A stretch of DNA of 53,474 nucleotides. It comes from Escherichia coli (GTDB lineage Bacteria > Pseudomonadota > Gammaproteobacteria > Enterobacterales > Enterobacteriaceae). The notes beneath the pieces are model-generated. The model saw only the letters and a program-made list of their open reading frames with translations. It had not been told where the DNA came from and made no database searches. Positions 16,884-47,694 of the stretch are shown in pieces; position 1 is the stretch's first letter; every line of letters begins with the position of its first letter. Where the stretch lies: NCBI GenBank assembly GCA_017639185.1, contig GCA_017639185.1_4892.1; one strand, given 5' to 3'. A program made the translations under genes and the position numbers.

Positions 16884-17174
16884 TTAGGCCATTTCTACCA
16901 GAAACGGGAACCATTTACCTTCGAAGTAACCGCGCTCATCTACAAGAAAAGGCATTACATCTTTTCCGTATTTAATAACGTTCTCGTCGGCTATGGTTGT
17001 TATAGCGTTGTACAGGTGAGTGCACATCGGATGTTCGCTATGGCCTCCGTAATATGCAATCTGCCCGTTGTGGGTTACAGCAGGTTTGCCTGCTACGAAT
17101 TCATCCCAGCTAAAAGGCTTAGCTTCCGCCAAGCCGTTTACTTCAGGGTGTTCGACCATATCGAACAAGTCCAT
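16884..17174 (-). CDS. hypothetical protein
   Basis: 96-aa ORF, co-oriented, abuts the upstream gene. Confidence 0.45.
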   Translation of the reverse strand: MDLFDMVEHPEVNGLAEAKPFSWDEFVAGKPAVTHNGQIAYYGGHSEHPMCTHLYNAITTIADENVIKYGKDVMPFLVDERGYFEGKWFPFLVEMA

Positions 17175-17875
17175 CAGATTACTCCATCCATGTGCTTACG
17201 GATAAAGTTAAGACGATCTGCCAGGTCGTCTGCACGACGTTTTTCAGCGTCACGCTGGGCAATAAGCTCTTTACGCTCTTCGCTGAAAGCACGGTTGTTA
17301 GCAACAGCCGTACCGTTAAGACTACGAATCTCAGCCTCATATTCTTCAGCGCGTTTGCCCATCAGTTGCTGCAGGTCGGTAATCTGTCGCTTATAGGCAG
17401 TAATAAGCTCAGACGCATCTTTATTGCAGCTTTCCAGCTTGCAGATATGCTCCTGCAGCATCTGTACATGCGCCCAGCCTTTAGCAATTTCGCGAGCTGA
17501 CATATCAGCTAACATACGGTCTGACATAGGAGCACCAGTATAACCCGAGGCCTTGCACAAGTACCAGTTTAGCGCACTGCTGAACATCTCACCGGTGCGA
17601 TATTCCAGTTCGTCGTTGAACTTTAGCTGTTCACAAGCTTCATCGTCAGAAGTAGTAATGCTGATGCTTTCTTCACACCCCTCGATGTTAATCTCAATGC
17701 TGACACCTTCAGTACCAGTCACTTCGTTATCTTCAAGAGCACGCTTGGCCAGGCGCAGCAGGTCTTCGCCTGACAGGTTCGGGTTAGTTGAACCCACAGT
17801 AACAGTCTTGTTGACGTCTCCTACGGTTGCTGACAGCGTGACTGAGGTATTGTATACTGGGCTCATTTGTTCCAC
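17174..17875 (-). CDS. hypothetical protein (C-terminal coiled coil)
   Basis: 233-aa ORF with charged helical C-terminus (RAEEYEAEIRSL...RDAEKRRADDLADRL). Confidence 0.45.
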   Translation of the reverse strand: MEQMSPVYNTSVTLSATVGDVNKTVTVGSTNPNLSGEDLLRLAKRALEDNEVTGTEGVSIEINIEGCEESISITTSDDEACEQLKFNDELEYRTGEMFSSALNWYLCKASGYTGAPMSDRMLADMSAREIAKGWAHVQMLQEHICKLESCNKDASELITAYKRQITDLQQLMGKRAEEYEAEIRSLNGTAVANNRAFSEERKELIAQRDAEKRRADDLADRLNFIRKHMDGVI

Positions 17876-18369
17876 TCCTTATTAATACGTTCGTTGATGT
17901 ATTCGAGAGCTGCTTCAGGACCGTCTTCTTCAACAGTCCAGTCGTAAATGAAGAACTGCTTACTCATCATAACCAGCTCGTCAATGAGGTTGTCATACTG
18001 ATTGTATAACGCCTCAAGATTTTCCACAACACCAGGCATTTCGTCTTTTGTAGTTGCTAGTACCTTTTCAACAGGCGGCATACAAAATATAACGATGGCG
18101 TTGTCACACATATCTGCTACATGTGATACATTAATATTGATGACAGGCGTACGTTGAAGAACCAGACAATAGATATACTCAGATATAACAGCGCTGCGGT
18201 CATAAATACAATCGCCTTCCAACGCGTTTTCTTTGGTCTGTTTAGCCATGACAGATTTGGGATCTTTGTCAACAGTATTATGAATAACACTGCGGCCAGT
18301 ATGAGATTTAAGGAACTCAATAAGTGTACTTTTACCAGCATTATCGGGACCCTCGATTATGATGTTCAT
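17863..18369 (-). CDS. deoxynucleoside monophosphate (thymidylate-like) kinase
   Basis: N-terminal P-loop IIIEGPDNAGKSTL in the Tmk-type position. 168 aa. Confidence 0.55.
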   Translation of the reverse strand: MNIIIEGPDNAGKSTLIEFLKSHTGRSVIHNTVDKDPKSVMAKQTKENALEGDCIYDRSAVISEYIYCLVLQRTPVININVSHVADMCDNAIVIFCMPPVEKVLATTKDEMPGVVENLEALYNQYDNLIDELVMMSKQFFIYDWTVEEDGPEAALEYINERINKEWNK

Positions 18370-19040
18370 TCGTGTAAACTCCTGTACCGTTGTATCAGAA
18401 CTTGTTTGTTATCAACATATTCATCATTATAAGTGAAGTCGCTATCAATGTACATCATTAATTTGCTACGATCCATTAAAATATCACTTGGACCTGATTG
18501 CTTGATCGTACTGATAAACATGTTGTCGATACGGAGTAAGTCTTTTGCATGCTCTTCAAGGGCCGAAAGTATCAACTCGGCACCACCTACAATCCAGACG
18601 TCAGTACCTCTGGACTCAAGGTCTGCTGCCATCTCACCCAGATTATTGTAGCCTTCTGAAGCCATAATCTGGCGAGATACCGGCAGCAGTATTCTGTGGG
18701 CTGACATAGGCAGACTCATAGTCATATACGTGTTACGACCGGCTAACAGTACACTATGTCCGACCATTTTTACCGTTACATCTGCTATCATGTTTCGCAA
18801 CTGGTCACTTGGGAATTGTCCCCGTAGTTGCTGATACGCATTATAGCCTGGTTCTGTCGCAATTGAATTAGTCATAGTCCTGAAAAAGAGCATGTCTGAC
18901 GGACATTTCCAGGGCAGACCAGACTTAGGAAGCGCCCGAACCTCTTCCATAGTCTTGCACGAGTCAACCTGATGCTTCATAAACTCCGGTGACAACCCGA
19001 ATTCCCCATTTTGGCCCATTGCAAAGAGAATATTAATCAC
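18366..19040 (-). CDS. dihydrofolate reductase-like protein
   Basis: Segment GLPWKCPSDMLFFRTMT resembles the DHFR PW..P.D..F...T motif. VWIVGGAELILSAL resembles the GGG region. Contains an insertion relative to canonical DHFR. Confidence 0.5.
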   Translation of the reverse strand: MINILFAMGQNGEFGLSPEFMKHQVDSCKTMEEVRALPKSGLPWKCPSDMLFFRTMTNSIATEPGYNAYQQLRGQFPSDQLRNMIADVTVKMVGHSVLLAGRNTYMTMSLPMSAHRILLPVSRQIMASEGYNNLGEMAADLESRGTDVWIVGGAELILSALEEHAKDLLRIDNMFISTIKQSGPSDILMDRSKLMMYIDSDFTYNDEYVDNKQVLIQRYRSLHE

Positions 19041-19518
19041 CTAAAAAGCCCCCAGTAGTGTCAGATAAAAGCGAGTTCATTACGTCTTGTGGCAGTATCA
19101 CAGGATGGTTACCTGTTTCGATTTTTGGCTTATGTTTTGGCGCTTTTTTGCGCTCCATGTGCTCATCATGGGCCTTACAAATGGCATTTACGATGAAATC
19201 GTGCTGATATGCGTACCATTCATCGTTTTCTGGGTCGTATTTAAGCCCTACATAGTTCATCAGCGATGACATTACGTGAATGCCTTCGTGGGAAATGGTG
19301 TTGTACTTCAGGTCGTCTGGGTGGTACAGTTCGACGACGATTAACAGGTACGGATAGCTAACGCGAGAGAATGTAAAGGTAGATGCATTACGCGTTTCCC
19401 GGTCATTCCAGTTGCCAAAATCAGGCAAATCCATCAGTTTTTGGAGCTCTTCGTGCTCTTTTTCGCTACAAACGATAGCCAATTGAGGCGGATATGGCTC
19501 TAATTGAACAATTTTCAT
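19033..19518 (-). CDS. HExxH zinc metallopeptidase-like protein
   Basis: Contains SHEGIHV (HExxH). First gene of the leftward arm, next to the control region. Start taken at ATG 19518 (track start 19530 is GTG). Confidence 0.4.
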   Translation of the reverse strand: MKIVQLEPYPPQLAIVCSEKEHEELQKLMDLPDFGNWNDRETRNASTFTFSRVSYPYLLIVVELYHPDDLKYNTISHEGIHVMSSLMNYVGLKYDPENDEWYAYQHDFIVNAICKAHDEHMERKKAPKHKPKIETGNHPVILPQDVMNSLLSDTTGGFLGD

Positions 19519-19755
19519 AATGTTACCCACAAGTAGGAGACCGTGAGGCCGTTTGATGATTCACATTAATGATAGCGCGTGGAGGAGAGAAAGTACACCA
19601 CTTTTTAGTGAGTGTCTACACAATTTCCGAAAAATATAAAAAAATTTTAGAGGGGCTTCACTTATTATTGTGTTAAGCAAAAGGTTAGCTCCTGCCGTAT
19701 TACTCTGATGATGATTGGTCCTGATAAGGAGAAAATACCAAAAAATAAAAAAAAT

Positions 19756-33484: not shown

Positions 33485-33970
33485 ATGCAAAAGAAGAAGA
33501 TGGACAAGTGGGACAGGCGGTTTATGCGCATAGCTTGTGAAGTTGCAAGCTGGTCTAAGGACCCGAAACGCCAAGTTGGTAGCGTTCTTGTGGACCAGAA
33601 CAAGCGTATTATTTCCACTGGATATAACGGTCTGCCTACGCAGCTAGACTCTATAAGAATAGTGCCTAATAGCCTCAAGAACGCTCTAACTATTCATAGC
33701 GAGATAAACACCTTAGCTAATATAAGGAGTGAGTTAGACACTCCTTCTTTAGGCCCGGTTACCATCTACATAACCTACCCGCCGTGCGAACATTGTGCTG
33801 ACATGCTGATAGCCAACCTTAACCTGGTACGTGTAGTTGCATTAGCACATACAGCTTCACAATCCAAGTGGAAAGAGAGCATGGCAAATGCCGTCGCTCA
33901 TTTGTGGGCACATAACATTGTGTACGATGAATTCAGCATTGAGGAGTTTAATAATGCCCAGTCCGTTTGA
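33485..33970 (+). CDS. dCMP (cytidine/deoxycytidylate-family) deaminase
   Basis: Zinc-binding motifs HSEINTLAN and PCEHCADMLI. Confidence 0.7.
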   Translation: MQKKKMDKWDRRFMRIACEVASWSKDPKRQVGSVLVDQNKRIISTGYNGLPTQLDSIRIVPNSLKNALTIHSEINTLANIRSELDTPSLGPVTIYITYPPCEHCADMLIANLNLVRVVALAHTASQSKWKESMANAVAHLWAHNIVYDEFSIEEFNNAQSV

Positions 33971-37870: not shown

Positions 37871-38409
37871 ATTCAATGGACATCCTTACATCTCTCTTCT
37901 TATCAACAATCAATTAAGCCTGGTGTGTTGAAACAGTGAGGGTGTCCAGTGAATGCAGTTCAATTCTGCTCGCTGACCGAGATTTGGTAAAAGCCGTGAT
38001 GTGTGAGGTTCGATTCCTCCAACGCTGAAAAGGGTATTGGCTCGCTACCTTGACCCCAGGCGCCTGGCGTAGACGGCGGTCACAATTTTAGTTGTGGTGT
38101 TTTGGCGTATCTTTTTGACACCCGTCGGGTGCAGGTTATCCACAGTAACTCAGGTGCTAAGACACCACAACTAAGGTTGTACTCGCTGTGTGCTTTTGCC
38201 ACTACAACTGTGTGATAAGTGTAACGCTATATACTTTTCATGTGGTAAGAGCACACAGCAAGTAACGCATATGTGATTGGCTACTTGATGGTACCTCCTT
38301 TCTGACTCGTCGCGGGGATTAAGTCGGTCAGTCCTTTAGCCAATCTCATATGCGCTGCCTGGTTGCATAACTGCGATTCCTTGTATCTCCTTACGCCACC
38401 CTGCCAAAA

Positions 38410-38440
38410 GGACCAGTTAACGCTGGTCCTTTTTTATTTT
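38410..38440 (+). terminator. intrinsic terminator
   Basis: GGACCAG-TTAACG-CTGGTCC followed by TTTTTTATTTT. Confidence 0.7.
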
Positions 38441-38460: not shown

Positions 38461-38490
38461 TTTACCACTAGAGAGTGATGTGGTATAATA
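38461..38490 (+). promoter_or_regulatory. candidate promoter TTTACCAC-N11-GTGGTATAAT
   Basis: Same architecture as 34841..34865. TATAAT at 38484..38489 with flanking TACCAC/GTGGTA inverted repeat. Confidence 0.5.
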
Positions 38491-38515: not shown

Positions 38516-38914
38516 ATGAATCTACAACGTGTCGCTGAAGCTTATTATAGAATTTGGATACTTCGTCTTGAAGGTCAAATTGACTACGTAAACACTGTCG
38601 GTCGTGAAGACTACCTGCCTGCATCCTCTTTCCATGAGGTATGTAACCTTGCTCAAACACTCGAGCATGAATTTGATAAGGTTAAATTTACACGCGAAGC
38701 GCAAAATAACTTTATCAAATTTGAAACAACCATGCGTTGCAAGTTCCCGTTTATCAAGCGTATATCTCGCACCGGCCTCTTCATTGTCCCCTTTCCTGTG
38801 GGTAAAGACCGTTGGGACATATTAGAGAAGGCCCGACATATAATCTGGTCTACTGAAACAAAACGTAAGTTTATCGAAACTGTTTGTAAGGAGTTAAGAA
38901 ATGCGATTCAGTAA
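38516..38914 (+). CDS. hypothetical protein
   Basis: 132-aa ORF with GGAGAG RBS. Confidence 0.5.
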   Translation: MNLQRVAEAYYRIWILRLEGQIDYVNTVGREDYLPASSFHEVCNLAQTLEHEFDKVKFTREAQNNFIKFETTMRCKFPFIKRISRTGLFIVPFPVGKDRWDILEKARHIIWSTETKRKFIETVCKELRNAIQ

Positions 38915-39494
38915 AATTGCTGCAGGCGTTACAGCTTTCCACGAGAAGTTTGACCTCAAGCCCATTAGTCAGGGCGGTAAGCCAGAGTTCAAGCTTCGCT
39001 ATGACCGTCTTATTGAGGAGATGGAAGAAATTAAACAAGCTAAGAAAGACGGCGACAAAGCTGGCTTCTTAGATGGTATTGTAGATTTAATTTACATTGC
39101 TGCAGGTACGTTATACCTGTATGACCAGACTGCATGGTTCACCAACGAATTTGAGTATCCGATTCTGTTAACTACGCCATGCGGATTTATGGACCGTTTC
39201 GATGCTGATGGCCTTATTGTATACGTTAAGGATACTGAAGACACTCATTGCGACCGTCTGGCCCAGTTAATTATCCACCTGATTACCTGGTGTGCAAACA
39301 ACAACTGGCCACTTGACGCAGCATGGGATGCGGTACAGGCTGCTAACATGGCGAAAGAACGCGCTAAGCCTGATGCAAGCAACAGCAAGCATAAGTCTAG
39401 TCAGGATATTGTTAAGCCTGAAGGATGGAAAGCACCTGACATCCAGGCCATTATCGACGCACACGTTAACCCGGCTCAAAAGGAACTGTTTTAA
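38901..39494 (+). CDS. all-alpha NTP pyrophosphohydrolase-like protein (MazG/dCTPase-like, tentative)
   Basis: EExxE-type acidic helix RLIEEMEEIKQAKKDGD and DGIVDLIYIAAG. Immediately upstream of the thymidylate-synthase-family gene. Confidence 0.35.
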   Translation: MRFSKIAAGVTAFHEKFDLKPISQGGKPEFKLRYDRLIEEMEEIKQAKKDGDKAGFLDGIVDLIYIAAGTLYLYDQTAWFTNEFEYPILLTTPCGFMDRFDADGLIVYVKDTEDTHCDRLAQLIIHLITWCANNNWPLDAAWDAVQAANMAKERAKPDASNSKHKSSQDIVKPEGWKAPDIQAIIDAHVNPAQKELF

Positions 39495-40378
39495 TGAAAA
39501 CATATAGCACTGTCGATTCTCTTTACAGCGACATCATTTCTTTTATCTTGCGTAAAGGCGAGGATGTTGTAGACCGTACAGGTGTTGGTACCCGCCGTTG
39601 TTTTGGTACGGCGTTTAAACTGGCTTTCAACGACAACAAACTGATGGTGCCGGTGTTTAAACCTGTTAACATCAAAGCTGTTGCTGCTGAGCTTTACTGC
39701 TTTATCAACGGCATTTCAAACGTCGACACGCTCAAAGGCTTTGGCTGCAACTGGTGGGAAGGTAACCTGCAGGACGCAAACAAACGTTGGGGTACGCCAG
39801 ACAACCGTGACCTAGGTCCTGTGTACGGCGTGCAGTGGATTAAGCCTTTCTATAAGAATGGTGTTCTCACTAACCAGCTTAAAGATGTTATTGAAACGCT
39901 GAAGGTTAAACCTACCGATCGCCGGGCGTACATTACGGCATGGAACCCACAAGAGATGGATGCTATGGCCCTTCCGCCTTGTTACCATGGTTTTCAGCTG
40001 TTCATTAACAACCGTAATGAATTAGAGCTGATGTTCCATATGCGTAGTGCGGACGTTATCCTTGGTCTGCCACATGACATCCTGCTTCATCAGATGTTGC
40101 AGATTACCATTGCTGCTGAGCTGGGTACTGGGGTAGGTGATATGACTGTTACGTTGGGTGACTATCACATCTATCAGAATCATATCGATGCGGCAAAGAT
40201 TTTCCTGCAACGTATCGTAAGCAATTCTGATACTACACTGGACACTAACTTTGAAGGTCGTCCTGACATTAACGCGATTTATGACGTGTCAGTATTTGAC
40301 TTCACTCCTGCCGATGTTGCGCCAATGGTTGAGAAGTACAAACCAATGCCAAACATCAAACTCCAAATGGCCGTATAA
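39494..40378 (+). CDS. thyA: thymidylate synthase family enzyme (ThyA-like; dUMP-type specificity Asn present)
   Basis: Motifs VDRTGVGTRR, DLGPVYGVQW, ALPPCYHGFQLF (catalytic Cys), GDYHIYQNH (Asn at specificity position). Residue after the catalytic Cys is Tyr, not the usual His. Confidence 0.65.
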   Translation: MKTYSTVDSLYSDIISFILRKGEDVVDRTGVGTRRCFGTAFKLAFNDNKLMVPVFKPVNIKAVAAELYCFINGISNVDTLKGFGCNWWEGNLQDANKRWGTPDNRDLGPVYGVQWIKPFYKNGVLTNQLKDVIETLKVKPTDRRAYITAWNPQEMDAMALPPCYHGFQLFINNRNELELMFHMRSADVILGLPHDILLHQMLQITIAAELGTGVGDMTVTLGDYHIYQNHIDAAKIFLQRIVSNSDTTLDTNFEGRPDINAIYDVSVFDFTPADVAPMVEKYKPMPNIKLQMAV

Positions 40379-40385
40379 GATGGAG

Positions 40386-40401
40386 CGGGGCTTCGGCCCC
40401 G
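40386..40401 (+). terminator. UUCG-tetraloop hairpin
   Basis: CGGGGC-TTCG-GCCCCG, same core as the hairpin at 33444. Confidence 0.4.
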
Positions 40402-40408
40402 TTATACT

Positions 40409-41404
40409 ATGAGCAAGTTTAACTATGACACCAAACAAATACAGATTGCCGTTCAACAAGCTCGTCCCATCAAGTATACTGATAGCGGTCTTATGGGCAA
40501 AATATGGATTGCAAACGAAACAATCCATTCATACTACAAGAACGTATTACTACGAGCGCCATGTAAAGGATTCCCAGACCTGCAAGTGGATGCTGAATCA
40601 TTTCGTAAGGCCGTTAATGCGGCAAGAACTGAACAGATTACTTTTAACATTACAGCCGCTGGAAACCTCACAGTCACAGCAGGCGTACTTAAAACAAGAA
40701 TGCAAGCGCTTAATGAACCAATACCGCCGCTTGCTACAGTTAACAACTGGTATTCAGCGCATGGCGAATTACTCCCGGTGCTAACTGCCCTGGCCAAATG
40801 GGTACCTAACGAAGCACCGCAGGTATGGGCAACATCTTTACTTTTGCGCGATGGTTATGCTTACGCCACTAACGGCAAGTATATGATACGCGAGAAGTTG
40901 AACGTAGATTTTGAATTTGAATGTGCCATAGCCAAGCCAATGCTTGAGGCCTTGGTTAAGCTGAAGATGGAACCCACAAGCGTAGGATATGCCCGCGGTC
41001 AGATGTTCTTCGGCTTTGCGGATGGCGTACAGATGGATGCTCCGGTACTCGCAGCCAAATGGCCAGACGTATCGAAGTTCTTCAATATGGAAATGGATAT
41101 GCAGGCCATCACTCCTGAATTCCTGGAAGTTATGGACCAGCTTACTGGGTATGACGAAGGTCAAGCCATTCTGGAGATAACAGGCGAGTCAACAGCAAAA
41201 GCAGATTTACCAGACAAGATTATTCCGAAGATGTCCGTCGACATTAAGTTCCAGTCGACTAAGTTTAGTAAACCGTTCAACTGTGTTATTAGTCAGATGA
41301 GTAAACTGGCTAAAGGCATGGAAAGAATAGGGCTTGGTAGTCAGGCGCTCAAAATGGAAAACTCAACTCGTACAGTTGTAATTGCGTATGTGAGAGGGGA
41401 CTGA
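40409..41404 (+). CDS. hypothetical protein preceding DNA polymerase
   Basis: 331-aa ORF. Stop overlaps the polymerase start. Confidence 0.45.
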   Translation: MSKFNYDTKQIQIAVQQARPIKYTDSGLMGKIWIANETIHSYYKNVLLRAPCKGFPDLQVDAESFRKAVNAARTEQITFNITAAGNLTVTAGVLKTRMQALNEPIPPLATVNNWYSAHGELLPVLTALAKWVPNEAPQVWATSLLLRDGYAYATNGKYMIREKLNVDFEFECAIAKPMLEALVKLKMEPTSVGYARGQMFFGFADGVQMDAPVLAAKWPDVSKFFNMEMDMQAITPEFLEVMDQLTGYDEGQAILEITGESTAKADLPDKIIPKMSVDIKFQSTKFSKPFNCVISQMSKLAKGMERIGLGSQALKMENSTRTVVIAYVRGD

Positions 41405-43371
41405 TGAGCTTTTTATTCGATAGCTTTGAAGGTGCAAAGAATGTTAAACCTATCAACCGTCCTATACCATACGTCAGGGATACTGGATGGCGGCCGCGCG
41501 CGCATTACCCGGATTTGTCTTCTGCGAAGATTATCGGTCTTGACTGTGAAACATACGACCCAGGGATGGATACAAATGGTAGTGGTTGGGCCAGGAGGGA
41601 AGGTCATATCGTTGGAGTTAGTATCGCTACGGACAATGGCTTCAAGGCTTACTACCCAATCAGACACGAGCTCGGCGAAGAGGATAACCTTCCAGCTGAG
41701 GAAGTACTTGGTTGGCTTCGGCTCGAACTCTCGCGACCTAACCAAGTTAAAGTCGGTGCTAACATCACATATGACTTGGGCTGGCTTGCAGCAGAAGGCG
41801 TGGAAGTCAAAGGATTGTGCATGGATGTACAATTCGCGGAAGCATTACTCGACCCAGGCGCGCGTGTTGCACTTGAAGGACTTGGACGAAAGTATGTAGG
41901 CGAAGGTAAAGACTCAGCTGAGATGTACCAATGGATTTCAGATGCTTATGGTTGTAAGCCAACAGGTGAAGCCAGAAAGTACATCTACAAAACACCTCCT
42001 CGTCTTGTGGGTTACTACGCTGAATCTGACGCCGACTTACCAATACACATTATCAAAGCCCAGTGGCCTTTGTTAAGTCGCTGGTGTTTAACAGACGTAT
42101 TCTATATGGAGTGCAAGCTCATTCCATTAATGCTTAAGATGCGTTTTGCAGGTGTGCGTGTTGACCTTGACAAAGCCAAAGAGGCGGATGATACGCTTAG
42201 CGCTGAAATAAGGAAAATGCACCAGCAGATTAAAGACCAGATTGGCTTTAACATTAACGTTAACTCCGGTCCTGATTTAGCACTTGCATTTGACCATTTA
42301 GGTCTGGAGTACTTCAAAACAGCGGCGGGTAATCCGTCGTTTACAGCGGACTTCTTAGCAGGCTTGCACCATCCGTTTGCGGAACTGGTGTCTGAGATTA
42401 AGTCTTATGAAAAAATCCAGTCCACGTTTATTCGTGGCTATATATTGGGGATGAATACAAATGGCTTCCTTCACGGTCAATTCCATCAAATGCGCGGTGA
42501 TGACGGTGGAACCGTTAGTGGTCGGTTTAGCTCATCTGACCCTAATCTACAGAATATACCGTCTCGACACAAAATACTGGGACCACTCCTTCGTGCTTGT
42601 TTCGTACCGGATGTCGGACACCGATGGGGATCAGCAGACTACGCCCAAATTGAATATCGATTCATGGCGCATTTTGCAGTCGGCCCGGGCGCTGATGAGT
42701 TACGAGCAATTTTCGCGGCTAACCCGGAAGCAGATTACCACAATGTTATGGTCGATATTATCAAGGAAGCCTCAGGTCACGTTATAGAGCGTAAACCGGC
42801 TAAGACCATCAACTTTGGTTTGTTGTACGGCATGATGCTTAATGCTCTTGCCCGTAAGTTAGCAATGACACCTGAAGAAGCAGAACCTGTTCTGAAGGCG
42901 TACCATCAGGGTGCACCATTCATTGGTGCTACCATGAAGCATTATGAAGATTTATGTTATAGCCAGGGGTATGTAGAAACCTTTATGGGCCGGAAAACGT
43001 GGTTCAACAAATGGGTCCCAAAACGTGGTGGATTCGGGAAGATGCCTTTGCCATTTGAAGAAGCACGTCAGGAGTATGGCCCAAACATTAAACTGGCAGA
43101 CACCCACAAAGCAATCAACCGAGTGCTGCAAGGGTCGTCAGCAGACCAGATGAAGTCTGCAATGCTGAAAGGGTATGAAGACGGTTACTTCGACGTGATT
43201 GGCGTGCCTCGCCTGACGGTACACGATGAGCTTAACTTCTCTCTACCAACTGGTAAGCAAGCAGAAGATGGATTCTACGATTTCGTACGGGTCATGGAAA
43301 CTGTGCTACCGCTTCGTGTACCTGTTCTTACTGATGCTAAGATAGAAAGTAACTGGGCAGAGGCGCACTAA
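41404..43371 (+). CDS. family A DNA polymerase with 3'-5' exonuclease domain
   Basis: Exo I IIGLDCETY. Pol motif A DYAQIEYRFMAHF, motif B RKPAKTINFGLLYGM, motif C VHDEL. Confidence 0.85.
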   Translation: MSFLFDSFEGAKNVKPINRPIPYVRDTGWRPRAHYPDLSSAKIIGLDCETYDPGMDTNGSGWARREGHIVGVSIATDNGFKAYYPIRHELGEEDNLPAEEVLGWLRLELSRPNQVKVGANITYDLGWLAAEGVEVKGLCMDVQFAEALLDPGARVALEGLGRKYVGEGKDSAEMYQWISDAYGCKPTGEARKYIYKTPPRLVGYYAESDADLPIHIIKAQWPLLSRWCLTDVFYMECKLIPLMLKMRFAGVRVDLDKAKEADDTLSAEIRKMHQQIKDQIGFNINVNSGPDLALAFDHLGLEYFKTAAGNPSFTADFLAGLHHPFAELVSEIKSYEKIQSTFIRGYILGMNTNGFLHGQFHQMRGDDGGTVSGRFSSSDPNLQNIPSRHKILGPLLRACFVPDVGHRWGSADYAQIEYRFMAHFAVGPGADELRAIFAANPEADYHNVMVDIIKEASGHVIERKPAKTINFGLLYGMMLNALARKLAMTPEEAEPVLKAYHQGAPFIGATMKHYEDLCYSQGYVETFMGRKTWFNKWVPKRGGFGKMPLPFEEARQEYGPNIKLADTHKAINRVLQGSSADQMKSAMLKGYEDGYFDVIGVPRLTVHDELNFSLPTGKQAEDGFYDFVRVMETVLPLRVPVLTDAKIESNWAEAH

Positions 43372-46353: not shown

Positions 46354-47694
46354 TTACGATACGTTGCTTACGTTAATCCAAGTGCCGTTAATGTAATACT
46401 GTAACGGCGCTGACCAGTATGAACCACCGCGCAGCTCTTTCTTATTGCCGAAGCGCCAGCCAGTCATTACATGCCCAGGGTAGAACGTTGACTCGGATAC
46501 ACCAGCAGCAATACGAGCGCCGAGTCGAATACCCCGAACGTTACCGGCTGAAGTATCGATAGGCTGCGGGTTGTTAGGTGAATATACTCTAACACCATTC
46601 TCGCATAAAATAAAGCTATTTGTGGTAGTTACTCGGCTATTAAGACCATCTACCTGCAAAGCTACTGTACGACGGTCGGCAATACCACCAGGGCGACATA
46701 CTGCCATGTTAATCTGTGTAGCACCACCAGCCACAAGGATGTGCTGGATGTGCGACATAGGCACAGATCCCCAGCGAGCAGCAGTGACAACATTACTGTT
46801 AGCCGCGACAGAAATTGAAGTCAGCAGCTCCTGAACAGCAGTACCGCCTGCGATGTTACCAGAATACTCAACAGTACCTACACCGGCGGAGTTAGCAGCA
46901 CGTAGCAAGTCGGAAGTAGTACGTGCAATATGTAACCAGCCTACAGTACCTAAGTTGCCGCGGATTGAGTCAGAACCATCCATAGGGATGAAGTCCTGGT
47001 TAATGCCCAGCTCAGATGCCGTAGGTTTATTATCAGGCCCGTAAGAGTATGACCATTCGCCCCAGGTATTGTTAACCTTCTCACGCATGGCTATTACGCG
47101 CTTACCCTTGGTGCGTCCCCACTGTGAAGCGTTTTTCTCATCCCAGTTGATATGCAGAATCTCAGTCTCAACGCCGTTAGTAGGTCCGCCCGTACCTGAC
47201 GCTGGAAGCTGGTAGATACCGTCGTTTACAATGCTGTTGGCATTAGTAACTACCTCAGCGTTGCCACCTAGCCCAAATGCACCGACCTGGATTACGTTAC
47301 CAGAGGCTTTACCGATCTGACGTGCTGCAGCAGATGCAGCAGTCAGGTCAAGTACAGGACGCCACTGCGTAGGGTTAGCAGACGGTACCATGTTAATATT
47401 TTGCACCAGACAACGGTACAGCATATTGTCGGCGTTAACTTTAACCAGTGCACCAACCGGGTAGGTCTCAGTTTCTACCCATACATCAACACCCTGCTGT
47501 AGGATGTAGTGGATACCTTTGTCAGTACGGTTACCGATAAAGTTAAACCACTCCATCGGAGGAATACCTTCCGAGTACCCAAGGGTTGCACCCCAGCCTC
47601 GAGCAAGGTCACCGAACGGCAGCAGTTCACCAGTACCTGCTGAGCTGGCGAAGATGTCGTTATCGGGTCTTGTTTGTACATCAGCCATATACAT
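46354..47694 (-). CDS. tail fibre protein
   Basis: 446-aa Gly/Asn/Thr-rich ORF immediately upstream of two Tfa-like genes. Confidence 0.6.
   Translation of the reverse strand: MYMADVQTRPDNDIFASSAGTGELLPFGDLARGWGATLGYSEGIPPMEWFNFIGNRTDKGIHYILQQGVDVWVETETYPVGALVKVNADNMLYRCLVQNINMVPSANPTQWRPVLDLTAASAAARQIGKASGNVIQVGAFGLGGNAEVVTNANSIVNDGIYQLPASGTGGPTNGVETEILHINWDEKNASQWGRTKGKRVIAMREKVNNTWGEWSYSYGPDNKPTASELGINQDFIPMDGSDSIRGNLGTVGWLHIARTTSDLLRAANSAGVGTVEYSGNIAGGTAVQELLTSISVAANSNVVTAARWGSVPMSHIQHILVAGGATQINMAVCRPGGIADRRTVALQVDGLNSRVTTTNSFILCENGVRVYSPNNPQPIDTSAGNVRGIRLGARIAAGVSESTFYPGHVMTGWRFGNKKELRGGSYWSAPLQYYINGTWINVSNVS

Follow-up and report, generated by a model that had tools for sequence, protein, structure and literature searches.

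A Thymidylate Synthase Homolog of a Rosemountvirus Genome Is a Predicted dCMP-Specific, 5-Methyl-dCMP-Forming Enzyme

What does a phage gene that is generally annotated as thymidylate synthase (TS) make, if the residue that should select its substrate is not the one found in TS? This question is raised by the TS homolog at positions 39494-40378 (plus strand) of the DNA analyzed here, a stretch of 53,474 nucleotides (contig GCA_017639185.1_4892.1 of the Escherichia coli assembly GCA_017639185.1) that is referred to below as the window and is approximately a complete Rosemountvirus genome. An earlier note on this DNA had recognized the gene as a member of the TS family and had weighed ordinary thymidylate synthesis against a pyrimidine modification route, with a lean to the former. 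The analysis reported here points the other way: the substrate is very probably deoxycytidylate (dCMP), and, with less assurance but on balance, we favor the prediction that the product is 5-methyl-dCMP and that the phage DNA carries 5-methylcytosine (5mC) in place of cytosine.

The gene is a genuine open reading frame (ORF) encoding 294 amino acids, its ATG start and the stop codon of the preceding ORF overlap in the sequence ATGA, and it was the sole TS-family ORF when all six frames of the window were inspected. It is a family member over its full length, as is evident from Pfam (PF00303, 2.6e-62), from PHROG (PHROG 160, 2.4e-80) and from a search of PDB sequences, in which 124 chains matched and the best 60 were all TS chains, with E values down to 6e-41. 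The catalytic cysteine and the phosphate-binding arginines are present, since C163, R28, R143/R144 and R184 align with the corresponding E. coli ThyA residues. An AlphaFold 2 model (pLDDT, 94.2) had mammalian TS structures as its top PDB matches (TM-score, 0.82), including ternary complexes with dUMP and antifolates. The Foldseek ranking of this model supports the fold and has no power to tell a methylase from a hydroxymethylase; as modeled, the protein has a TS-family fold, and the model says nothing about its product.

Residues are numbered below as in E. coli ThyA, the sequence of which was checked and found to be identical to PDB 1AOB. In the motif PPCYHG of the window protein, Cys163 (TGT, 39980-39982), Tyr164 and His165 occupy the positions of E. 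coli Cys146, His147 and residue 148, and the earlier description of a TS-family enzyme with tyrosine after the catalytic cysteine was therefore accurate. The block that contains the substrate specificity residue reads R166-S167-x-D169-x-x-L-G173-x-P175-F176-N177 in ThyA and aligns gaplessly with RSADVILGLPHD in the window protein. The position of Asn177 is occupied by Asp195 (GAC, 40076-40078), within LGLPHDIL. Four alignments agreed on this placement: phmmer against the Mycobacterium tuberculosis and Staphylococcus aureus TS proteins, BLASTP against the TS homolog of phage Xp12 and against T4 gp42, and MAFFT with E. coli ThyA; in the BLASTP pairings, D195 is aligned with the aspartate of the Xp12 homolog (PYD) and of T4 gp42 (RND). 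The earlier note had placed the dUMP specificity asparagine in the sequence IYQNH; this assignment was mistaken, because HIYQNH aligns with E. coli H207-L-Y209-S-N211-H and its asparagine is N211 of the H207-x-Y209 motif.

Other substitutions accompany the aspartate. The equivalent of Gln165, which in TS orients Asn177, is Met183 in the window protein, as it is methionine in T4 gp42, and the equivalent of Phe176 is histidine. An insertion of eight residues follows Trp80. Canonical ThyA (E. coli and human) is 35 to 37% identical to the window protein and has Asn177, Gln165, His147 and Phe176 where the latter has Asp, Met, Tyr and His, respectively; shared by the two are the fold (TM-score, 0.82), Arg21, Glu58, Trp80, Trp83, Tyr94, Arg126, Arg127, Leu143 (Leu160 in the window protein), Cys146, Arg166, Ser167, Asp169 (Asp187), His207, Tyr209 and the full TS-type C-terminal tail, which ends in YKPMPNIKLQMAV with the final residues MAV. 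Human TS likewise ends in MAV. Alignment with ThyA and the hydroxymethylases, the check that had been proposed for this gene, thus upheld the TS fold, the tail and Leu143 and did not uphold the specificity asparagine.

Several of these positions have published meanings. The N177D substitution shifts the preference of TS from dUMP to dCMP (Liu and Santi, 1992, and Hardy and Nalivaika, 1992, as related in PMC8670742 and PMC13326640), and positions 177 and 147 were the two best separators of TS homologs from cytosine-modified and unmodified viral contigs (PMC8670742). The earlier note had correctly called the residue after the cysteine unusual and had correctly allowed for a modification route. 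Leu143 keeps water out, L143D/E is the mark of hydroxymethyl producers, and D169N marks 5-hydroxy-dCMP synthases (PMC13326640). The TS tail shuts over the folate; hydroxymethylases give back tetrahydrofolate (THF) and hence require no dihydrofolate reductase (DHFR) (PMC5175136). TS homologs with Asp177 made 5-methyl-dCMP in five of seven in vivo tests, and the Xp12 enzyme also made 5-methyldeoxycytidine (bioRxiv 10.1101/2024.12.05.627091). By these published rules, the combination of Asp177, Leu143, Asp169 and a full tail reads as that of a 5-methyl-dCMP synthase. It is from these residues and their conservation, which are observed, that we infer both the substrate and the product.

The pattern recurs across the relatives of this protein. 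A homolog search over 5.8 billion proteins provided 31 members of a phage clade (P0001 to P0031), which were aligned with 89 other hits. Members of the clade are 48 to 99% identical and lie mainly on contigs of 44 to 54 kb, after which identity falls to approximately 37% for bacterial ThyA. Tyr147, His148, Met165 and His176 are present in all 31 members and Asp177 in 29 of them; all 89 other hits carry Asn177, His147, Gln165 and Phe176. In this alignment, the residue pattern of the clade is not a matter of chance. In a library of 1.84 billion representatives at 50% identity the clade reduces to a single representative, the nearest neighbors of which mostly combine Leu143, Met165, Asp169 and Asp177 with TS-like C termini. 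Asp177 occurs in 36 of the top 149 nearest representatives and Tyr147 in one; tyrosine after the catalytic cysteine is, by this count, nearly clade specific. Clade members P0013 and P0020 (L009:584-1462 and L010:53-931, on contigs of 1.0 to 1.6 kb) have Asn177 and Lys127 while keeping Tyr147, His148, Met165, His176 and the MAV tail, and P0013 has an overlapping MazG-like gene upstream. The pair may represent a natural Asp/Asn substrate switch on one scaffold.

Public annotation gives a different reading, namely that the protein is an ordinary TS that converts dUMP to dTMP and tolerates its substitutions. The gene has 100% DNA identity to that of the Salmonella phages yarpen, nenneke, zoltan and triss, and 46 of the 47 phage records that matched at the DNA level show an identity of 90% or more; a protein search with the Loughboroughvirus homolog gave 62 phage records. 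Among the listed records that are annotated at this position, all but one say "thymidylate synthase," a name also carried by the gene of BP63, which forms part of a commercial Salmonella biocontrol product. The protein scored 172 bits against a cutoff of 108 with the NCBIfam model TIGR03284 (thym_sym, an "equivalog"), despite the absence of the specificity asparagine, and fell under the cutoff of all of the narrower PRK01827 models; the equivalog pass probably explains the uniform RefSeq name. The fold and most of the catalytic residues are indeed TS-like, and His147 is replaceable in TS, since valine occupies this position in Bacillus subtilis ThyA and in the phi3T TS. In addition, a DHFR, a dCMP deaminase and a "thymidylate kinase" would make up a textbook route to dTTP, as was proposed for the related phage S144 (PMC7432712). 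Against this reading, a residue that is asparagine in every one of the nonclade hits is aspartate here, its partner Gln165 has been lost as well, N177D is described in the later papers cited above as turning TS into a dCMP methylase, and the cytosine-linked restriction resistance of S144 and fHy-Eco03, considered below, would be left without an explaining gene. We therefore regard an ordinary TS as very improbable, and the blanket annotation is probably wrong.

If dCMP is the substrate, the product could still be 5-hydroxymethyl-dCMP, as made by T4 gp42, with DNA that contains 5-hydroxymethylcytosine (5hmC), perhaps modified further. The window protein was aligned with T4 gp42, the Xp12 TS homolog, SPO1 gp29 and M6 gp58. 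T4 gp42 (PDB 1B5E) resembles it in the specificity aspartate, Met165 and the catalytic cysteine, glutamate and tyrosine, and the shared Asp177 and Met165 speak for a hydroxymethylase. However, T4 gp42 is only 21% identical to the window protein, has Asp143, lacks the C-terminal segment of approximately 27 residues that closes the TS active site, and makes a hydroxymethyl product in a reaction that gives back THF. The dUMP hydroxymethylases SPO1 gp29 and M6 gp58 have Asp143, Asn177, long unrelated extensions and no TS closing tail, so that Asp143 and the loss of the tail were found in three of three aligned hydroxymethylases; the window protein has Leu143 and a full tail. Moreover, a hydroxymethylase needs no DHFR, yet a DHFR-like gene is present in a genome in which the TS homolog is the only TS-family gene. 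A dUMP hydroxymethylase of the SPO1 gp29/M6 gp58 type, which has Asn177, Asp143, no Trp80 and a long helical C-terminal extension, was considered separately and rejected, because the window protein has Asp177, Leu143, Trp80 and no such extension.

The closest functional parallel to the predicted 5-methyl-dCMP synthase is found in Xp12, a phage in which 5mC replaces all cytosine and the dCMP methylase of which has been shown to make 5-methyldeoxycytidine in vivo. Like the window protein, the Xp12 TS homolog (QNN97214) has Asp177, lacks His147 and Gln165, and is the only TS-family gene product of its genome. The two proteins are 28% identical, and Xp12 has Pro147, Asn143, Phe83 and a C terminus that is four residues shorter; the window protein, with Leu143, Trp83 and the full MAV tail, is nearer to TS and carries Tyr147, His148 and His176. 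Xp12 is a Xanthomonas siphovirus, whereas the window phage is an enterobacterial myovirus. A second parallel is provided by engineered enzymes: E. coli TS N177D and Lactobacillus casei TS N229D, as cited in PMC8670742 and PMC13326640, place the specificity aspartate on a TS scaffold and act as dCMP methylases. The window protein amounts to a naturally occurring N177D TS in which the remaining TS catalytic machinery is intact, but it differs from the engineered protein at positions 147, 148, 165 and 176 and by the eight-residue insertion.

The genes around the TS homolog are consistent with such an enzyme. The earlier note had listed a dCMP deaminase, a MazG-like protein, a deoxynucleoside monophosphate (dNMP) kinase and a DHFR-like protein split over the two arms of the genome, and all four were recovered, on both strands. 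Directly upstream, at 38901-39494 (plus strand), lies a gene for a MazG/PRA-PH-like all-alpha nucleoside triphosphate pyrophosphohydrolase (PF01503, 31.5 bits against a cutoff of 21.3; PHROG 671, 8.9e-25), the stop codon of which overlaps the start of the TS homolog and the product of which is homologous (E value, 1e-10) to the protein whose gene immediately precedes that of the Xp12 TS homolog. A dCMP deaminase family protein is encoded at 33485-33970 (plus strand; dCMP_cyt_deam_1, 3.4e-21; MafB19-deam, 6.8e-12) and is 33% identical to the Xp12 deaminase (E value, 3e-23). On the minus strand are a P-loop dNMP kinase with the motif GPDNAGKST (17863-18369; PHROG 761 "thymidylate kinase," 8e-26), for which the Pfam dNK and TIGR00041 matches were weak and confined to the P loop, and a divergent DHFR-like protein of 224 amino acids with a GTG start (18366-19040; DHFR_1, 28.8 bits against a cutoff of 25; PHROG 316, 4e-24; PDB 1zdr, 1.3e-4). 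The translation of the latter shows the substrate and NADPH motifs LPW..D..FF(R)..T, GRNTY and VGG. Searches of PDB sequences with the MazG-like protein and the kinase gave marginal matches only, and the substrates of these two proteins are therefore predictions. A family A DNA polymerase (41404-43371, plus strand) lies in one gene string with the TS homolog; a published study reports that it is related to polymerases of the Mesyanzhinovviridae.

Xp12 also carries a homologous PRA-PH gene directly upstream of its Asp177 TS homolog, together with a deaminase homolog and a DHFR; the Xp12 genes are contiguous, whereas those of the window are split over two arms. The DHFR-like gene had been taken as an argument for genuine thymidylate synthesis. 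It does not discriminate, because a dCMP methyltransferase oxidizes folate too and Xp12 has a DHFR alongside an Asp-type TS homolog. Given this and the mislocated asparagine, both bases for the earlier lean toward dTMP synthesis fail. PRA-PH, dCMP deaminase (dCMP_cyt_deam_1/MafB19-deam) and DNA_pol_A are the domains found beside Asp177 TS homologs on cytosine-modified contigs (PMC8670742; bioRxiv 10.1101/2024.12.05.627091), and the MetaGPA wastewater contigs share both diagnostic positions, 177 and 147, with the window protein (PMC8670742). The window differs from those contigs in that its deaminase gene lies 5.5 kb from the TS homolog, beyond the +/-3 kb surveyed in that study. In the preprint on such contigs, a linked deaminase converted 5-methyl-dCTP to dTTP, sidestepping the need for a true TS (bioRxiv 10.1101/2024.12.05.627091). 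As a side observation on Xp12, the upstream gene product QNN97215 (L003:46207-46980, minus strand), which is named "hydrolase (HAD superfamily)," is PRA-PH/MazG-like (PF01503, 6.6e-15), and the next ORF upstream (46973-47455) matches HhH-GPD (5e-7).

The gene set and the parallel with Xp12 are observations, from which we infer what the accessory proteins do and which bases make up the virion DNA. It can be envisioned that the PRA-PH pyrophosphohydrolase would convert dCTP to dCMP, both supplying the substrate and excluding dCTP, and that the TS homolog would then convert dCMP and 5,10-methylene-THF to 5-methyl-dCMP and dihydrofolate, with the one-carbon unit moved and reduced. The DHFR-like protein would return dihydrofolate to THF, and the phage dNMP kinase and the host nucleoside diphosphate kinase would take 5-methyl-dCMP through the diphosphate to 5-methyl-dCTP. 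The phage family A polymerase would incorporate this nucleotide, so that 5mC would largely or wholly replace cytosine and shield the DNA from most type II restriction. Thymidylate would be obtained through the deaminase, either by conversion of dCMP to dUMP for host ThyA or by deamination of a 5-methyl-deoxycytidine nucleotide, as in Xp12 and mSCD-B5.

Restriction data from two relatives bear on this proposal. The Loughboroughvirus S144 is represented by the TS homolog P0003, which has the same signature; tblastn gave 99.7% identity between P0003 and the S144 gene, and P0003 shares 73% identity with the window protein. S144 DNA was not cut by any of the seven GC-containing enzymes tried (XhoI, EheI, Bsp120I, Cfr42I, MauBI, NotI and SspDI) and was cut by SspI and PacI alone, which have AT-only sites; its authors concluded that cytosine was modified but found no gene, and they assigned the TS, deaminase, kinase and DHFR to a dTTP pathway (PMC7432712). 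These digests do not tell 5mC from 5hmC, a point in favor of a hydroxymethylase. Phage fHy-Eco03, which was called a Rosemountvirus by its authors, encodes a homolog (gp55) with an identical signature and 61% identity to the window protein. Among NcoI, NotI, ScaI, SphI, AflII, EagI, Sau3AI and SmaI, only ScaI cut its DNA; the authors found that the pattern was not explained by known methylation sensitivities and left the modification "unknown" (PMC8145870). According to the New England Biolabs (NEB) tables, the 5mC DNA of Xp12 is partly cut by ScaI and resists the other seven enzymes, whereas the 5hmC DNA of T4gt resists ScaI (PMC7653180). Taken with these tables, the cutting of fHy-Eco03 DNA by ScaI fits 5mC and argues against 5hmC. 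The earlier note had seen no direct evidence of modified DNA, and this holds for the window sequence on its own, but the digests of S144 and fHy-Eco03 show a cytosine-linked modification in its relatives. The papers on swi3, vB_SenM-1, PA13076, SPHG1, SE13 and AV127 contain no restriction data, and our literature search found no paper linking these phages to a 5mC pathway.

A Pfam scan of 24 ORFs of the replication and early arms of the window, with the structural-gene arm outside the scan, found no glycosyltransferase or carbamoyltransferase domain, although several orphan ORFs could conceal one. With this result, the ScaI digest, the DHFR-like gene and the residues discussed above, we consider a T4-type hydroxymethylase unlikely. 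Neither a ThyX nor an S-adenosylmethionine-dependent C5-methyltransferase motif was found in the six frames of the window; one match to RHRxxS was judged spurious and lies in a stop-to-stop frame opposite an annotated minus-strand tail fiber gene.

The site content of the window is a separate observation. GATC is strongly avoided, with 35 occurrences against 159 (Markov) or 206 (zero-order) expected (z of about -9.8), and GATATC is absent against an expectation of 13.8; CCGG, CGCG, GCGC, CCCGGG and GCCGGC occur at or over expectation. In the NEB tables, MboI and DpnII (GATC) cut Xp12 5mC DNA and EcoRV (GATATC) cuts T4gt 5hmC DNA, Xp12 being without an EcoRV site (PMC7653180). The avoidance pattern would fit a genome that has purged just those sites that its modification cannot protect. 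Avoidance of GATC is common among enterobacterial phages.

A third possibility is a different C5 product, whether 5-hydroxy-dCMP, as made by RB69 gp48, or an undescribed one formed with the help of Tyr147, His148 and His176, or else further modification of 5mC or 5hmC by the product of an orphan ORF. Several such ORFs accompany the predicted pathway genes. A promoter-like site, TTTACC-17-TATAAT with a TG element (38461-38489, plus strand; a consensus match only), is preceded by a terminator-like hairpin (38406-38433) and heads a unit made up of orf132 and the genes for the MazG-like protein and the TS homolog. The first of these, orf132 (38516-38914, plus strand; PHROG 36727, no Pfam match), encodes an orphan protein of 132 amino acids, runs into the start of the MazG-like gene and has gp57 as its fHy-Eco03 equivalent; it appears to be cotranscribed with the other two genes of the unit and may contribute a component of the pathway. 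Two other orphan ORFs, of 232 amino acids (17174-17875, minus strand; PHROG 37540) and 164 amino acids (19033-19530, minus strand; PHROG 1365), had no Pfam match or other recognizable function and flank and overlap the kinase-DHFR pair in one compact minus-strand string. The fHy-Eco03 equivalents of the former and of the DHFR-like protein were seen in virion preparations by mass spectrometry (PMC8145870).

In favor of such a product, TS homologs have recently provided unexpected chemistry in the synthesis of 5-hydroxycytosine (PMC13326640), the Tyr147/His148/His176 triad is nearly unique among the nearest representatives, and the fHy-Eco03 pattern was not accounted for by its authors. Conversely, Asp169 is kept and the D169N mark of 5-hydroxycytosine formation is thus absent, plain 5mC DNA reproduces the fHy-Eco03 pattern enzyme by enzyme, and the Pfam-scanned ORFs contain no recognizable transferase. 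It is accordingly doubtful, and to our mind less probable than a hydroxymethylase, that the triad or a cotranscribed orphan ORF such as orf132 gives these enterobacterial myoviruses a cytosine derivative other than plain 5mC or 5hmC, which would be an undescribed C5 modification formed by an enzyme on a TS scaffold. An enzyme of the RB69 gp48/DLP3 gp80 type was rejected as a candidate, because it needs both D169N and L143E and the window protein keeps Asp187 and Leu160. Immediately downstream of the TS homolog, 8 nucleotides past its stop codon and 7 nucleotides ahead of the next gene, is a hairpin with a perfectly paired 6-bp GC stem and a TTCG loop (40386-40401, plus strand; CGGGGC-TTCG-GCCCCG); it has no T run and so is not a classical intrinsic terminator, and it could act in RNA stability or processing.

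Several points weigh against 5-methyl-dCMP as the product. The residue rules are correlative, and the validated Xp12 methylase itself has Asn143, Phe83 and the shortened tail, so that neither Leu143 nor the tail is strictly required. The combination of Tyr147, His148 and His176 is rare even among Asp177 relatives, as the single Tyr147 among the 149 nearest representatives illustrates, and the two clade members with Asn177 indicate that the scaffold by itself does not set specificity. The MazG-like protein has no BLASTP similarity to the T4 dCTPase gp56. Finally, the digests were made with DNA of relatives, the TS homologs of which share 61 to 73% identity with the window protein, and the cutting of Xp12 DNA by ScaI is only partial, compared with a complete pattern in fHy-Eco03, the suppliers of the enzymes also being different.

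Precedents for an enzyme and a pathway of this kind exist in Xp12, in the N177D mutants and in the MetaGPA contigs; the novelty lies in ascribing them to the present clade, the members of which are myoviruses of E. coli and Salmonella. Both the S144 DNA that was described as "modified on the cytosine" and the "unknown modification" of fHy-Eco03 gain a candidate gene and pathway. To our knowledge, prereplicative replacement of cytosine by 5mC would, if the prediction is confirmed, be a first for phages of E. coli and Salmonella. Such a very TS-like natural dCMP methylase would be useful for studies of how members of this family choose their substrates and products, and, in practice, the modification would affect how these phages are cloned, mapped with restriction enzymes and sequenced by methylation-aware methods. 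Their DNA would escape type II restriction but would be open to attack by McrBC, McrA and Mrr-type systems, which would bear on their host range.

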